Shown here piece after piece: positions 15,102 through 20,343 of a stretch of DNA of 27,251 bases. Source of the stretch: a virus. Taxonomy: Duplodnaviria; Caudoviricetes. The notes under the pieces were generated by a model. The model did not search any database. It saw only the letters and a program-made list of their open reading frames with translations, and was not told the DNA's origin. The position numbers and the translations under genes were made by a program. The stretch spans positions 1 to 27,251 of the IMG/VR virus record IMGVR_UViG_3300005573_000248; one strand, given 5' to 3'. The first letter of the stretch is position 1. The number at the start of each line of letters is the position of its first letter.

Positions 15102-15380
15102 TTATGTATTTGATTTAACCGTTAATTGAGATGTTCCAGCAATAGCTGCACAAATTGCAATAAGATAACTTAACGCCGTAATTAAATTTATATTTAAATT
15201 TAGTTGAGTTGTTGAATTTATTATAACAACCGCAGATGCTGAACCACCTATTTTAATTGATAATTTCTTTATTTTCTTGAAAAATTCAGGTGATTCTGCT
15301 TTCCATCTATATTTTATTACTTCAATTACTTTGTATAATAATAATATTTTATTTTGATAATATGTTTTTAATTTATCCAT
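15102..15380 (-). CDS. Putative holin (two hydrophobic segments)
   Basis: RWKAESPEFFKK basic segment followed by two hydrophobic stretches (IGGSASAVVII; LITALSYLIAICAAIAG). Confidence 0.5.
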   Translation of the reverse strand: MDKLKTYYQNKILLLYKVIEVIKYRWKAESPEFFKKIKKLSIKIGGSASAVVIINSTTQLNLNINLITALSYLIAICAAIAGTSQLTVKSNT

Positions 15381-15412
15381 AATGTTTACATTTATTTTAA
15401 TTATTATTTCTA

Positions 15413-15442
15413 TATATAAATATCATTATATTTTAAAAAGTA
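15413..15442 (-). promoter_or_regulatory. Candidate second promoter class, TACTTTTT-N11-ATATTTATATA
   Basis: About 33 nt upstream of the ATG at 15380; same motif and spacing at 18209-18238 and a variant at 18537-18566. Confidence 0.45.
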
Positions 15443-15490
15443 TATATTATATAGAAATTTATTTTTATATAATATATTTTATAATACTTA

Positions 15491-15576
15491 ATTTAAGGCT
15501 CTATAAGCTCATAAAATTATATGAGTGGTAACTTTATACTACTTTTCTATTATACTGTCTTAAATCGCCTTAAAAT
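15491..15576. repeat. Structured repeat family B, copy 2
   Basis: TTTAAGGCTCTATAAGCTCATAAAATTATATGAGT...GTCTTAAATCGCCTTAAAAT; near-identical to the copy 396 bp downstream. Confidence 0.9.
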
Positions 15577-15743
15577 GATTATTTTGGATATTTTATTGGA
15601 TTATATTAATATCGTTATTTAATAACACTATTTTATAACCTTTTTTTTATATCATTTTTTTTTATTATATATTGAATTATTATATAACATTCTTTATATA
15701 ATATAACATTCTTTATATAATATATTATTATATTTATATCTTC

Positions 15744-15836
15744 AAAAAAAGGACATTTAAAGTGCATTTACTCTAATGTATTATTTTTTTTTTTCTATAT
15801 AGTTATTGTTATTGCACTATCGATGTCCTTTTTTTT
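15744..15836. repeat. Structured repeat family A, copy 1
   Basis: A7-GGACAT-ttaa-AGTGCA-ttta-CTCTAATGTATT...TATAGTTATTGTTAT-TGCACT-atcg-ATGTCC-T8. Confidence 0.92.
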
Positions 15837-15886
15837 ATATTATCATATTATTATATTGTTTTGTTAAATATATTTTGTTATACTTA

Positions 15887-15972
15887 TTTTAAGGCTCTAT
15901 AAGCTCATAAAATTATATGAGTAATATCTTTATATTAATTTCTTATTATATTGCCTTAAATCGCATTAAAAT
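15887..15972. repeat. Structured repeat family B, copy 3
   Basis: TTTTAAGGCTCTATAAGCTCATAAAATTATATGAGT...GCCTTAAATCGCATTAAAAT. Confidence 0.9.
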
Positions 15973-16093
15973 GACTATTTTGAATGTTTTTATTGGATTA
16001 TATTAATAACCTAATTTTATAATCTTATTTAATAACATATTTTTATATATAATATCTTTATTTAATATCATTATTTTATATTTATATCTTCTT

Positions 16094-16196
16094 AAAAAAA
16101 AAGTATCATTTAAAGTATCTTGTCTCTAATGTATTGTTCTTCTTTTTTTATATATATATATAGTTATTGTTAAGATACTATCGATGATACTTTTTT
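16094..16196. repeat. Structured repeat family A, copy 2 (both arms compensatorily changed)
   Basis: A9-GTATCAT-ttaa-AGTATCTT...CTCTAATGTATT...TATAGTTATTGTT-AAGATACT-atcg-ATGATAC-T6. Confidence 0.9.
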
Positions 16197-16288
16197 ATAT
16201 TGTATTTTATTATATAATGATTTATTTAAATTGAAATAGATTATTAAATAAAAATATATAGTATTTTATTATTAGTATTATATTTTAT

Positions 16289-16371
16289 AAAAAAAGGACA
16301 TAAAAGTATCTTTACTCTAATGTATTGTTTTTCTATAGTTATAGATAAGATACTTCGATGTCCTTTTTTTT
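16289..16371. repeat. Structured repeat family A, copy 3 (mosaic arms)
   Basis: A7-GGACAT-aa-AAGTATCTT...CTCTAATGTATT...TATAGTTA...AAGATACTT-cg-ATGTCC-T8. Confidence 0.9.
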
Positions 16372-16482
16372 ATATTATTATTTTTATTTAAATTGAAATA
16401 TATTATTAAATAGGTTATTAAATATAATAATATATTATATAATGTGTTATTAAATATGGTTATAAAATAAATTATTATATAT

Positions 16483-16509
16483 AAAAAAAAGGACATGAAG
16501 TCCTTTTTT
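16483..16509. repeat. Minimal family A hairpin (outer arms only); may act as bidirectional terminator
   Basis: A8-GGAC-atgaa-GTCC-T6. Confidence 0.75.
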
Positions 16510-16545
16510 ATTATATTATGTTATTTTATATTTATATCATTTTAT

Positions 16546-16629
16546 AAAAAAAGGACATTTAAAGTGCATTTACTCTAATGTATTGGTCTTTATAGTTATT
16601 GTTATTGCACTCTCAATGTCCTTTTTTTT
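16546..16629. repeat. Structured repeat family A, copy 4, overlapping the last ~20 codons and stop of rep
   Basis: A7-GGACAT-ttaa-AGTGCA...CTCTAATGTATT...TGCACT-ctca-ATGTCC-T8; read on the minus strand it encodes KKKDIESAITITIKTNTLE*. Confidence 0.92.
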
Positions 16630-18087
16630 ATTATTAATATTATTATCAATATTATTATTAGAAAAAGATTTATTGAATATATTGTTATTCAATTTTTTAT
16701 CTAACTTAATATTATTATTATGTTGTTTTATTATATTCTTCATATTATCATCTAAATTTCTATTAATTGTTTTTTCTGATAAATTCAAATAATTAGCTAT
16801 ATATTTATTAGTTATTTTTTTATCTATATTATTCATTTCATTATATATAAAATTAGATATTAAAATAAATGATTGATTATCAAATTGATTATCAAATTTA
16901 TTATTATGTTCTTCTATCATATTTTTCATTTCATCTTCTATTATATTGTTTATAGTTCTTACAGATAATCCAGTATATTCTGATATTGTCTTATATGTTA
17001 TTTTTGAATTTATATTATATATAATATCTCCAAAAAATTCATGTAATTTTATTTTAGTATTTTCTCCTCTTTTATTATGATATGCATTATATTTATTATT
17101 GGATTTTGGATTAACCCAATATTTTTTCATTCGTGAATTTATTGGTTTAAGATTGTCTTTATTCTTCAATTTATAATCTATTATATTATATAACTCCTTA
17201 TCATTTAATTTATTAATAGAATATTTATTTTGAAGATTAGATAAAACAAAATATAATTGTTTTCTATCAACTTGAGGATTTAATAATATAAGATTGTTTA
17301 TATATGATGAGTATATTAATTCTCTATTTCCTTCTTTTATTTCTCTAATTTTCTTATTATCAAAAGGTATAAAACATTCATAATATAATTTTCCTTCTGC
17401 AATATAAATGCATTCTTCATTATTATAATTATCTAATTCAACTTTATATTTTAATTTAATAAAATTATTATTAGAATATTCTATTGAAATATTATTATTA
17501 TTTATTTCATTATTAATATTATTATTTATCTCAATATCATTATTTATTTCAATATTAATAATATTATTAGCATCAAAAATATAACTATTACTATTTATAT
17601 AAATGTTTGGATCATAAGATATAATATTAAATTGACTTTTTTTTGCTGCATTTTTATCGATAAATTCATTGATATTTAATATTTTAGCTATTTCATAATA
17701 ACTATTTTCAAAATTATCTATATTAATATTATTAACTCGAACTATAATTGCATATCCATTACCTCCAACACTTTTATAATAACAATATACAAAATCTTTA
17801 TTTAATAAATTGATATTAAATAAATTATCATGATTATCAATATCATAATATAGATAACCAGTTGGTTTGATGATATTTGAATCTTTTTTGTATTTGTGGA
17901 ATTGAAAATTCCATGTTACCGCAGGCAGTGTTTGTTTTACAGTCTTTTTATCTAATTCTTTTCTTCTTATTTGTTCAATAAGTTCGCTGTAAGGTGAATT
18001 TTTTATGAGTTGAAGATAATCTTCTACTTCAATATTTTGTGAAATTGTAGGCTTTGTAACGCTCTCAAAGTAGTTAATTGTGTTCAT
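16570..18087 (-). CDS. Replication protein: BT4734-like/VirE-N primase(-polymerase) domain, PriCT-like region and two tandem HTH repeats
   Basis: KQTLPAVT...TGYLYYDID, KSVGGNG, DKNA...ISYDPNIYIN motifs; Asn-rich linker; EGNRE; two homologous C-terminal HTHs (KITYKTISEYTGLSVRTINNII / KITNKYIANYLNLSEKTINRNL). Confidence 0.8.
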   Translation of the reverse strand: MNTINYFESVTKPTISQNIEVEDYLQLIKNSPYSELIEQIRRKELDKKTVKQTLPAVTWNFQFHKYKKDSNIIKPTGYLYYDIDNHDNLFNINLLNKDFVYCYYKSVGGNGYAIIVRVNNINIDNFENSYYEIAKILNINEFIDKNAAKKSQFNIISYDPNIYINSNSYIFDANNIINIEINNDIEINNNINNEINNNNISIEYSNNNFIKLKYKVELDNYNNEECIYIAEGKLYYECFIPFDNKKIREIKEGNRELIYSSYINNLILLNPQVDRKQLYFVLSNLQNKYSINKLNDKELYNIIDYKLKNKDNLKPINSRMKKYWVNPKSNNKYNAYHNKRGENTKIKLHEFFGDIIYNINSKITYKTISEYTGLSVRTINNIIEDEMKNMIEEHNNKFDNQFDNQSFILISNFIYNEMNNIDKKITNKYIANYLNLSEKTINRNLDDNMKNIIKQHNNNIKLDKKLNNNIFNKSFSNNNIDNNINNKKKDIESAITITIKTNTLE

Positions 18088-18209
18088 TTTTGGTATTTTA
18101 TTGCTTTTATTCGATATTTTTTTATTAAAAAAAATAAAGGGATTAATGAAATCAAGGAAATACCAAAAAAACTTGTTTCAAAAGATCTTGCAAAATCCTC
18201 CCTTTATTT
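18087..18209 (-). promoter_or_regulatory. Structured 5' leader of rep (attenuator / pseudoknot candidate)
   Basis: 11-bp stem 18132-18142/18199-18209 followed by a U-run; inner stem 18147-18156/18172-18180; loop 18158-18169 is the exact complement of 18087-18098. Confidence 0.7.
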
Positions 18210-18238
18210 ATATAAATATTATGTTATTTCAAAAAGTA
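18209..18238 (-). promoter_or_regulatory. Candidate rep promoter, TACTTTTT-N11-ATATTTATATA
   Basis: Ends where the structured leader begins; matches 15413-15442. Confidence 0.5.
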
Positions 18239-18277
18239 TATATTTTTTTTTATGTTATACAACATATAATTTATAAA

Positions 18278-18368
18278 AATCATAATTGCCTCAAATATTA
18301 ATGCTTATTATATTATTATTATTCTATTATCATTATTCAATTTATGCATTTATGAGGCAATTATGATT
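18278..18368. repeat. Perfect 16-bp inverted repeat in divergent intergenic region
   Basis: AATCATAATTGCCTCA (18278-18293) and TGAGGCAATTATGATT (18353-18368), with a 59-nt spacer. Confidence 0.85.
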
Positions 18369-18536
18369 GGAACATATCATTTATCTATTTATTTATCACA
18401 TAAAATATACTATATTATTTTAATAAATCAAAATATATAAAAAAATATTTTATAATATTGATTTTATAATGCATTGTATATCAATGTTATATATATTATT
18501 ATAAAAAATAATTTAAATATATTTAACATTTTTTAG

Positions 18537-18566
18537 TATTTTTGGAATTATTGTGATATTTATATA
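18537..18566 (+). promoter_or_regulatory. Candidate promoter of plus-strand operon, TATTTTTG-N11-ATATTTATATA
   Basis: Shares GATATTTATATATAGAAATA with the minus-strand site at ~15420; upstream of the ATG at 18629. Confidence 0.4.
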
Positions 18567-18628
18567 TAGAAATAGGAAATAATAATTTCAATATAAATAA
18601 TAATAATAAAAATAAAATTAAAAGAACT

Positions 18629-18835
18629 ATGAAAACAACAGAAAAATTAAAATTAATGGAAAGAATAATAATAAATAGAATTATGAATATAAAAGATAAA
18701 ATATATAATAAAATAAATATAAAATTATTATTATTTCTTTCAATAGCATTAAATATTTTCTTTTATTTATATATAATTGAAATATTATCAGTTATAAATT
18801 GTTATCATGCATTAGTTTTAAAATTAATCAAATAA
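18629..18835 (+). CDS. Small membrane protein, function unknown
   Basis: ATG after an A-rich leader; basic N-terminus and one hydrophobic segment (LLLFLSIALNIFFYLYIIEILSVI). Confidence 0.45.
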   Translation: MKTTEKLKLMERIIINRIMNIKDKIYNKINIKLLLFLSIALNIFFYLYIIEILSVINCYHALVLKLIK

Positions 18836-18882
18836 AATCACAAATTAAATTAATAAATAATTCAAAATAAAAAAAATACAAC

Positions 18883-19446
18883 ATGAATATAACAGTAACA
18901 GCAACTAAACCAACTGTTTGGGATGAAAAATCAATTAATTATTCGGATAAAATGGAACAAATGAACAAAGAATATATTAAATTTTTATTCAATAAAATGT
19001 TTATCAATTCTTATAACAAAATAATTGAATTAGAAAGATTTAGCGAGATAGATTTTTTGTTTGAAAATTTTTATTATGAAGATAAAAGTATTAAAAAAGG
19101 AATAATTGAAAGCAAAATAAGATCAATATCATATGATCAATACCCTTCAATTCTAATAGAAGAAGACAAATATAGAAAATTATGGGAGAATGAATATTCA
19201 AAAGATTATACTATATCACTTTATATCAACTTTTTAGAAAATTCAAAAGAAAAAGTATGGATTTGCAATATAAAAGATATAAAAGAAAATGAGTACATGC
19301 TAGAATATAAAGAAAATATGAGAATAAAAATAAAGTCCTTAGGAAATAAATATACTTATTACGAAAATAGAATTTTGATACCTAGAGAATTAGGCAAATA
19401 TTACGAATTCAAAAAGGATTTAAATAAATATATATTAATAAAATAA
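18883..19446 (+). CDS. Putative PD-(D/E)XK nuclease-fold protein
   Basis: FSEIDFLF...GIIESKIR...YPSILIEEDKY gives a D...ExK pattern. Confidence 0.6.
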   Translation: MNITVTATKPTVWDEKSINYSDKMEQMNKEYIKFLFNKMFINSYNKIIELERFSEIDFLFENFYYEDKSIKKGIIESKIRSISYDQYPSILIEEDKYRKLWENEYSKDYTISLYINFLENSKEKVWICNIKDIKENEYMLEYKENMRIKIKSLGNKYTYYENRILIPRELGKYYEFKKDLNKYILIK

Positions 19447-19471
19447 ATAATAATACTATAAAATACAAATT

Positions 19472-19672
19472 ATGCAAGAAAAAGAAAAAATTACAGTTAG
19501 ATTTTCTCAAAACACACTTTTACAGCTTTCAGAAATAAAAGATTCTCTTAATGTATCTTACTCTTTATTAATAAGAACAATAGTATCCGATTTTTTAATA
19601 AGAAATGAAGAACGATTATATCAATTGATTGATAATAAAAATAATAATAATAAAAAATATAAATCTAAATAA
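19472..19672 (+). CDS. Ribbon-helix-helix (CopG/Arc-like) DNA-binding protein
   Basis: KITVRFS beta ribbon, then helix-LNVSYSLLIRTIVSDFL. Confidence 0.75.
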   Translation: MQEKEKITVRFSQNTLLQLSEIKDSLNVSYSLLIRTIVSDFLIRNEERLYQLIDNKNNNNKKYKSK

Positions 19673-19673
19673 A

Positions 19674-20024
19674 ATGCCTACTATTCCCAAACTCCCAAAA
19701 GCAAAAAGACATACTGAAAACTCAGAAAAGCGAGTAGAAAGACAAAAGTATTACAACACTAGCCGATGGCACCGCCTCAGGGCTGAAAAATTGAGACAGT
19801 CACCACTATGCGAGGATTGTTTGAAGGATAATATAGTTACACTTGCAACTGATGTACACCACAATATTTCATTTATGAGTAGTGATAATGAAGAAGTCAG
19901 ACAGTATTTATTTTTTGACTTTGAAAATTTAGTTAGTCTTTGTAAAACTTGCCACCAAAAAAGACATAACTCACATATAATAGATGATCCAGATAATAAT
20001 AACGACGATAAAAACAAAAAATAA
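19674..20024 (+). CDS. HNH endonuclease (HK97 gp74-like terminase cofactor)
   Basis: YNTSRWHRLR...PLCEDC...ATDVHH...NLVSLCKTCHQKRH; start moved to ATG 19674 (MPTIPK). Confidence 0.93.
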   Translation: MPTIPKLPKAKRHTENSEKRVERQKYYNTSRWHRLRAEKLRQSPLCEDCLKDNIVTLATDVHHNISFMSSDNEEVRQYLFFDFENLVSLCKTCHQKRHNSHIIDDPDNNNDDKNKK

Positions 20025-20025
20025 A

Positions 20026-20343
20026 ATGAATATAAATGATATTATAACATTGAAATATAATGAATTAGCAGCTTTATGTAAAAAAAACATTATTATTCGC
20101 TGCGAAAACAAATCTGGAGTTCGTGATATTGAACAAATTGACATTTTACACACCATAATTCTTAGATTTCTTAAAAAATATCGTCATAAGGATGATTTAA
20201 ATGTTGATGAAGTATATAATAGTCTAAAAATGACATTTTTAGGTGAAATAAATAATTATTTAAAGCTAAAAAAACCAGAAAGTTTAACATTCATCTCAAT
20301 GGATGAAATTAAATTTGAACATAATAATGAAGAAACAACATAA
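20026..20343 (+). CDS. 105-aa protein resembling an isolated sigma70/ECF region-2 domain
   Basis: ATG 20026 follows the HNH stop. Pattern KYNELAALCKK...IDILHTIILRFLKKY...VYNSLKMTFLGEINNYLK...ISMDE echoes ECF sigma2 helices; no room for a sigma4 domain. Confidence 0.5.
   Translation: MNINDIITLKYNELAALCKKNIIIRCENKSGVRDIEQIDILHTIILRFLKKYRHKDDLNVDEVYNSLKMTFLGEINNYLKLKKPESLTFISMDEIKFEHNNEETT

Follow-up and report, generated by a model that had tools for sequence, protein, structure and literature searches.

A leader RNA with one loop and two partners before a predicted replication gene of a temperate phage

How temperate phages of the Bacteroidota hold a replication gene down is poorly known, and so is the action of base-pairing RNAs in a phylum whose ribosomes ignore Shine-Dalgarno (SD) sequences. 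Both questions are raised by the locus described here, where a structured leader RNA precedes a replication-type gene and carries a loop complementary to that gene's translation start. What does this pairing do, and on which transcript?

The phage and its predicted replication protein

The window (the whole stretch of DNA analysed, 27,251 nt) is a complete virus record of about 27 kb. It codes for a terminase, portal, prohead protease, capsid, tape measure, HNH protein and large serine recombinase; because structural genes and the large serine recombinase are present, the element is a temperate phage. The plasmid setting assumed in an earlier note, made from the letters of this DNA, was wrong, with no plasmid match for the window. 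Nearly all of the stretch is present in two hot-spring metagenome runs, a possible source. Homologues of the protein described below are almost confined to Bacteroidota records; SD-like 4-mers stand ahead of none of the 23 window genes and A is found at -3 in 17 of the 23, a pattern that agrees with initiation in Bacteroidia as given in the available parts of PMC13000457 and PMC7797042. The phage host is likely a member of the Bacteroidota, and the host without SD use that the note had proposed is borne out by these counts. Three ORFs of 187, 66 and 119 aa (18883-19672, 19984-20343) have no Pfam or PHROG match, and a CI-type repressor was not recognisable among the scanned ORFs, despite the serine recombinase of this phage.

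The gene behind the leader encodes the following protein.

16570..18087, minus strand: 505-aa protein; BT4734-like AEP primase fold, PriX/PriCT-like helical domain, HTH region

PF08800 (BT4734-like) is matched in the N domain (E 1.3e-9, 38.8 bits vs a cut-off of 22.4), and HTH matches are also present. AEP motifs I and III are represented by D84 and D144, invariant in 19 of 19 aligned proteins; the motif II histidine is unconserved in this alignment. The predicted structure (mean pLDDT 81.6, pTM 0.41) has its best fold match, of middling score, in the S-2L PrimPol (Z 8.8, rmsd 3.8, 138 residues aligned), and RepB' is also matched (Z 6.7); residues 226-319 match PriX, again with a middling score (Z 6.2). 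Foldseek gave no match for the model at E ≤ 0.001, and no PHROG was found for the protein. We infer a replication initiator (the 'Rep' of the earlier note) from domain architecture only. ColE2 Rep and RepE-RepS share the order AEP, PriCT-like domain and HTH without a helicase, as far as the available text of PMC5862659 goes; the window protein differs in being BT4734-like and phage-borne, with an unconserved motif II histidine and an activity that is predicted.

Downstream of the primase-fold gene, and overlapping its end, lie four cassettes of about 85-105 nt (15738-16635), with a short fifth at 16478-16515. Each is an inverted repeat with A/T tails, of which the arms vary two-sidedly between copies and the inner words are conserved; similar cassettes occur in the related locus L001. 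They are candidates for an origin or a small-RNA array.

The leader in the window

Leader features are given as coordinates, strand and description.

18205..18218, minus: promoter-like TATTTAT motif in a perfect 14-bp palindrome; inferred promoter, at a motif peak in homologous leaders
18199..18209, minus: P1 5' strand, 11 bp with 18142-18132
18183..18198, minus: P2 hairpin, 6 bp (18198-18193/18188-18183) with 2 G.U, loop UGCA, -2.3 kcal/mol
18147..18180, minus: P3 hairpin, 9 bp plus bulged A18152 (18180-18172/18156-18147), carrying the anti-start loop
18158..18169, minus: anti-start strand in the P3 loop, 12 nt, exact complement of 18098-18087
18132..18142, minus: P1 3' strand, running into U8
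18127..18134, minus: U8 tract, candidate terminator tail; three U shared with P1, 7/8 U after P1
18115..18136, minus: P4, 9-bp A-U hairpin with a 3-nt loop, -3.4 kcal/mol
18110..18119, minus: decoy, second loop partner, 10 bp with 2 G.U, -5.7 kcal/mol, 32 nt upstream of AUG
18087..18098, minus: start-site target, -11 to the A of AUG; helix -10.4 kcal/mol

All elements of the earlier note were recovered on the minus strand base for base, including the exact 12-nt complement between loop (18169-18158) and start (18098-18087) that ends on the A of AUG. Its single loop partner stands; a second partner, the decoy at 18119-18110, had been missed. The predicted junction P1-P3 spans 78 nt (18209-18132). 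The P3 loop measures 15 nt (18171-18157), P1 starts with AAAU and has U-rich tails on both strands, and P4 competes with the end of P1 and with the decoy. P2 is the weakest element and is missing from the distant clade described below; its 4-nt loop forms no helix of score ≥ 15 with the start region. A simple terminator scan did not call the branched, 11-bp P1 with its U8. The last 60 nt of the leader contain no ATG, GTG or TTG, so there is no uORF there.

That a candidate promoter ends at P1, as had been proposed, is supported by homologous leaders: among 143 of them, 25 of 74 occurrences of TATTTAT fall at -140..-121, on the sense strand only, the distribution on the antisense strand being flat. 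The motif is unlike the TAnnTTTG consensus given in the available part of PMC7366714. The palindrome at 18205-18218 may serve the divergent operon (18883 onward) as well as the leader, or it may be an operator; upstream of the leader, the divergent intergenic region also holds an inverted repeat with TTGCCTCA-type arms (18286-18360).

In folding, the nascent leader takes the junction as its minimum free energy structure (-17.3 kcal/mol), pairing with a probability of 0.66-1.0 in P1, 0.42-0.67 in P2 and 0.53-0.65 in P3, and P1 reaches at least 0.94 in nascent RNA for eight 5' ends, two temperatures and 3' ends 18127 and 18105. The junction alone is near chance (z -1.81; 50 of 1000 dinucleotide shuffles fold as well). 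The opposite (+) strand folds better (z -2.84; 9 of 1000), and because it does, the G.U pairs from which the transcribed strand had been argued are insufficient by themselves. Nested folding with the start included, which cannot model pseudoknots, lets the loop:start helix displace P1 and P3, with a probability of 0.99-1.00 at 37 C and 0.58-0.99 at 55 C (3' end 18060, eight 5' ends), and gives the decoy pairing a probability of 0.00. A match of at least 12 nt arises in 300 of 20000 shuffles, and in 25 of 20000 when at least two G/C are demanded; this gene is the only one of 23 in the window to reach 12 nt (others ≤ 10). The genome is rich in repeats and in A+T, and outside its coding parts 63 of 972 overlapping positions also have a match of that length. 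The decoy match is weak taken alone (1800 of 20000 shuffles, 9%). The window sequence by itself leaves the matter unsettled: the 12-nt match is uncommon, not decisive.

Compensatory change in related leaders

A close strain (L001; 85% protein identity) carries differences that recur in contigs of runs X3 and X6; they were read from difference tables that hide some rows, and the L001 leader itself reaches only 55 nt before the start, where its contig ends. The loop change 18160 U>C is matched at the start site by 18096 A>G and in the decoy by 18117 A>G, the partner of 18160 there; it was because 18117 A>G called for an explanation that the second partner was found. A further change at 18112 turns a decoy U.G into U-A, and no P1 substitution is listed. 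Pairs are also lost at the ends: 18167 U>C and a 2-nt deletion trim the start and decoy helices, leaving nine contiguous start pairs, and P4 loses one pair. At the gene start of L001 (56-75), a 9-nt duplication adds three residues and one more A before AUG.

One X6 contig (depth 4.45) joins 18258 back to 18129, giving a tandem unit of promoter, junction and U tract with no gene start behind it. The unit rests on that single contig and on the assignment of X3 record 13, which would be the upstream tandem copy and has a depth of 36, similar to the other contig of the strain; in that record P3 is rebuilt by changes in both arms and the loop is altered. A pattern scan of viral contigs for the leader found none.

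In a FastTree phylogeny of 145 proteins, the window groups (SH 99) with L028, P0008 and L097-L099. The leader of L028 (Bacteroidales) has an 11-bp GC-rich terminator-like hairpin with a U tail 140 nt before AUG, and its loop is an exact, GC-rich 10-nt complement of -9..+1, again ending on the A of AUG (0 of 200 shuffles). The pairing register is that of the window and the letters are unrelated; the tract after P1 or the hairpin has 7/8 U in both. L028 is without a decoy (its own ranks 10 of 12), and a second promoter-like stretch before its gene fits what an RNA acting in trans would need. L097-L099 are built on a different scaffold, in which a single strand faces two copies of its target (-29, -11). 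The proteins of L028 and P0008, used as queries, led to no additional locus.

Ten more distant leaders, nine from one protein clade (SH 100) and L318, which was found after the idea had been noted, are of Mucilaginibacter type, and several, L033, L318 and L319 among them, sit in prophages of cultured Mucilaginibacter. In all ten, P1 encloses P3 and the loop pairs with a decoy at -26..-32. The window has the same topology, in that P3 lies within P1 and the loop can pair with a decoy and with the start, at the same spacing (loop at -82 vs -77..-88, decoy at -32 vs -26..-32). Among 31 pairs, 16 change two-sidedly, which none of 500 shuffles reached and which lies above all slid controls; the structure was drawn from the same ten sequences and kinship inflates the shuffle test. 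These counts come from a plain MAFFT alignment of the ten, in which 82.6% of 298 cells pair. The loop follows the start codon, reading CAU against AUG, CAC against GUG (L116) and CAA against UUG (L008), with starts assigned by script and two candidate UUG in L008. L122 fails, its own start ranking 8th of 12, and L318 is weak (7 bp, own start 4th). The decoy scores about as high as the start helix, or higher, in seven of the ten (L003, L007, L008, L035, L122 and L318 clearly; L006 within one point). U tails are poor throughout (1-6 U of 8), and termination is for that reason not general.

In the clade, the linker from P1 to P3 also pairs with the loop of P4 as a second pseudoknot, and there are extra competing helices; in the window the P2 hairpin sits at the place of this linker, the P4 loop is 3 nt long and the pseudoknot is missing. 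A covariance model of the ten leaders (R1) had no match on 18087-18209 among its 58 matches at E ≤ 10 with filters off, so that we claim a shared design, not membership; homology between the window and the ten rests on topology and spacing only. Two further candidates were rejected: coupling to a leader peptide as a general feature (uORFs of 3-16 codons with unfixed stops, none in the window), and an alternative helix Pb of the distant clade, which was non-significant (34 of 500).

Loops were also exchanged among leaders. A loop scored 21.2 with its own start vs 12.6 with the starts of other leaders; none of 100000 permutations did as well in a set of 12 leaders, and 13 of 100000 did in the 10 chosen by protein clade. 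Loops likewise favoured their own decoy (0 and 9 of 100000, respectively). A loop-borne start helix scoring ≥ 20 is present in 8 of 148 distinct homologous leaders, that of the window included, vs none of 290 neighbouring genes; when the helix need not lie in a loop, the counts are 15 of 148 and 19 of 290. Strands with two targets scoring ≥ 17 occur in 16 of 148 leaders vs 6 of 290 genes, and within the leaders in 16 of 85 of one large clade vs 0 of the 63 others. The cut-offs of 20 and 17 were chosen once the data had been seen, and the leaders, being related, are not independent. Viral loci matching mostly the N-terminal domain only, and L176-L374 except L318, are left out of all counts; groups of 401, 17, 401, 229 and 401 genomes were searched, and no further leader entered the analysis. 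The loop design is counted in three lineages: the window with L001, L028, and the ten.

One loop has two mutually exclusive partners, kept through compensatory change, and one of these is the initiation region. The covariation of loop and start among homologues that the earlier note had named as a check was found in the close strain, L028, the ten leaders and the exchange of loops, and it supports the note's structured leader with a loop pairing to the downstream start. The loop:start pairing is very probably a functional RNA element.

A second leader type was seen in L010, L021, L025, L030-L032, L037, L043, L045, L066, L097, L105, L107 and L115: a hairpin with GUAAUUAC/GUAGCU/GUUGCU-like loops, then a short strand able to pair with two repeated sites, which lie 10-45 nt ahead of the start; those scanned had no Rfam match. 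In five other leaders (L009, L029, L179 and L312 at -13, L101 at -11), an out-of-frame AUG lies just before the assigned start and an upstream UCAUU strand is complementary, which may reflect an overlapping uORF or a mis-assigned start.

A possible switch, its rivals and its nearest parallels

Taken together, these observations incline us, a little beyond an even balance, to a repressive anti-start RNA switch with a decoy that limits the predicted replication protein. Transcription would begin near 18209, and P1-P3 would fold first. Some transcripts may end at U8, giving an RNA of about 80 nt with a free loop and without the decoy. In read-through mRNA the decoy would emerge first and park the loop of that same transcript; for a time the A-rich, unstructured start that SD-blind ribosomes of Bacteroidota need would stay open. 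Later the start would be closed, either in trans by the terminated RNA, which would sense dose and act as a brake for copy control or immunity, or in cis, the loop shifting to its stronger partner; masking of the initiation region would repress translation. Since P3 cannot stay closed while a 15-nt loop forms all 12 pairs, the loop would nucleate the helix and P3 would then open, as it does in the nested fold. The action in trans is suggested by the layout of L028, the tandem unit and the 7/8 U after P1 in the window and L028, and is weakened by the 1-6 U of 8 in the ten.

The layout could also work purely in cis, as a folding timer: the mRNA would be translatable until the loop moves from decoy to start, and the protein made per transcript would be capped. 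A start helix stronger than the decoy (-10.4 vs -5.7 kcal/mol) makes the flip expected in the window as well, and it takes over the full-length fold; the ten-leader clade, with weak U tails and extra competing helices, would suit a timer too. The stand-alone terminator-like hairpin of L028, which lacks a decoy, and the target-less tandem unit nevertheless fit action in trans better, and in the seven distant leaders in which the decoy equals or exceeds the start helix the flip is unfavoured; we hold a pure timer to be unlikely. Such a two-state design needs a trigger, and this might be an outside ligand, either a cis-antisense RNA (IncI-like, of opposite sign) or the protein itself, whose HTH domains would be in keeping with that role. 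The better folding of the + strand (9 of 1000) and the U-rich tails of P1 on both strands point the same way. Against it, neither TAnnTTTG nor TATTTAT occurs on the + strand from 17800 to 18204, and TATTTAT has no positional peak on the antisense strand of the 143 leaders; G.U vs A.C cells are 29:20 family-wide (p 0.13), and the cells of P3 and loop:decoy, a subset picked after that non-significant overall test, favour the sense strand with 16 G.U vs 4 A.C. An outside ligand appears improbable to us.

That the repeats act as DNA, as a protein-binding site or a single-strand priming hairpin, or are due to chance in a sequence of 85% A+T, would agree with the modest z of the junction (-1.8), the 63 of 972 non-coding positions that reach 12 nt, the primase fold of the gene and the inverted-repeat cassettes downstream; it accounts poorly for a partner that tracks the translation start in unrelated sequences, for a single loop change compensated at two sites and for G.U in the decoy pairing, and has very little probability in our estimation. 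Plasmid rep genes of the pT181/pIP501 type are controlled by attenuators in which an antiterminator fold competes with a terminator in the nascent RNA, an intrinsic terminator lying upstream of rep. Attenuation of this kind, in which antisense RNA picks between the two folds, had been suggested for the present leader, and U8 after P1 would be its terminator tail. It is unsupported: P1, at 0.94 or above, has no competing fold ahead of the U tract for any of the eight 5' ends, the + strand before the leader has no promoter motif, and the covariation of loop and start would go unexplained. We give it scarcely any credence.

The proposed anti-start switch with a decoy has closer parallels among phage RNAs than among plasmid leaders, the descriptions of which are taken here from the available parts of the papers cited. 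C4 of phages P1/P7 (RF01695) is a same-strand RNA of about 77 nt with three stems, of which a loop that varies with its target occludes a translation start (PMC5320573), comparable with the predicted 78-nt junction of the window. C4 has two loops (a', b') and is cleaved by RNase P at a GGW 5' end (PMC5320573); the window has a single loop for targeting, with a decoy downstream of it and a U tail, and its P1 begins with AAAU, not GGW. The RF01695 covariance model gave 0 matches at E ≤ 10 in the genome that contains the leader. The CI RNA of phage P4, with seqA/seqC, likewise derives from a leader, has two sites complementary to it and keeps replication genes switched off; it is made by processing, causes premature termination and is flanked by its sites on both sides (PMC4825925). 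In the window both sites are downstream, one of them over the initiation region of the replication-type gene. IsrK of Gifsy-1 resembles the proposed arrangement in that a single promoter yields two transcripts, a short one that terminates and a long mRNA from read-through, on which the short one acts in trans; IsrK activates translation (PMC4825925), whereas the action inferred in the window is repression. In repZ of ColIb-P9 (IncI-alpha), with its Inc RNA, a leader loop about 80-100 nt upstream pairs near the rep start and two partners compete for the loop (PMC4705826). The ColIb-P9 pseudoknot is activating, forms upstream of the SD and depends on a leader peptide as well as an RNA from the other strand (PMC4705826). 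The effect proposed for the window is of opposite sign, and its pairing covers -11..+1; no uORF lies in the last 60 nt, and no antisense promoter motif was found. The IncI/IncB likeness drawn in the earlier note is to be corrected in this respect, for the pairing of the window lies over the initiation region.

Rfam gave nothing on the window at gathering, with only sub-threshold miRNA/lncRNA matches in 15300-19000; tRNAs only on 20 chosen homologue loci; and nothing at E ≤ 0.5 on L028, L318 and L358. These leaders are undescribed in the literature covered (subscription papers and the 224-motif supplement of PMC5737381 fall outside it, and the latter could bear on novelty), and the available parts of PMC2864571 and PMC5737381 contain no such leader. 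The leader is likely an uncatalogued RNA switch, without an Rfam family, that would work most like C4, CI and IsrK.

Bacteroidota prophages with BT4734-HTH proteins may share an undescribed principle, which we advance tentatively and with more doubt than belief: one antisense strand would have two targets, the decoy disarming the mRNA's own loop and the decoy-less terminated leader silencing the start in trans, rebuilt on several scaffolds, with strains adding leader units with altered loops. If this two-target principle is true, it would be a same-strand system of copy-number control and immunity without a repressor or an opposite-strand RNA. The leader is a small system open to testing, and natural compensatory variants of it are already available. 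Should the decoy work as proposed, this would be a new way for one transcript unit to be both regulator and target, and swappable loop/start pairs would be possible orthogonal translation controls for Bacteroidota.
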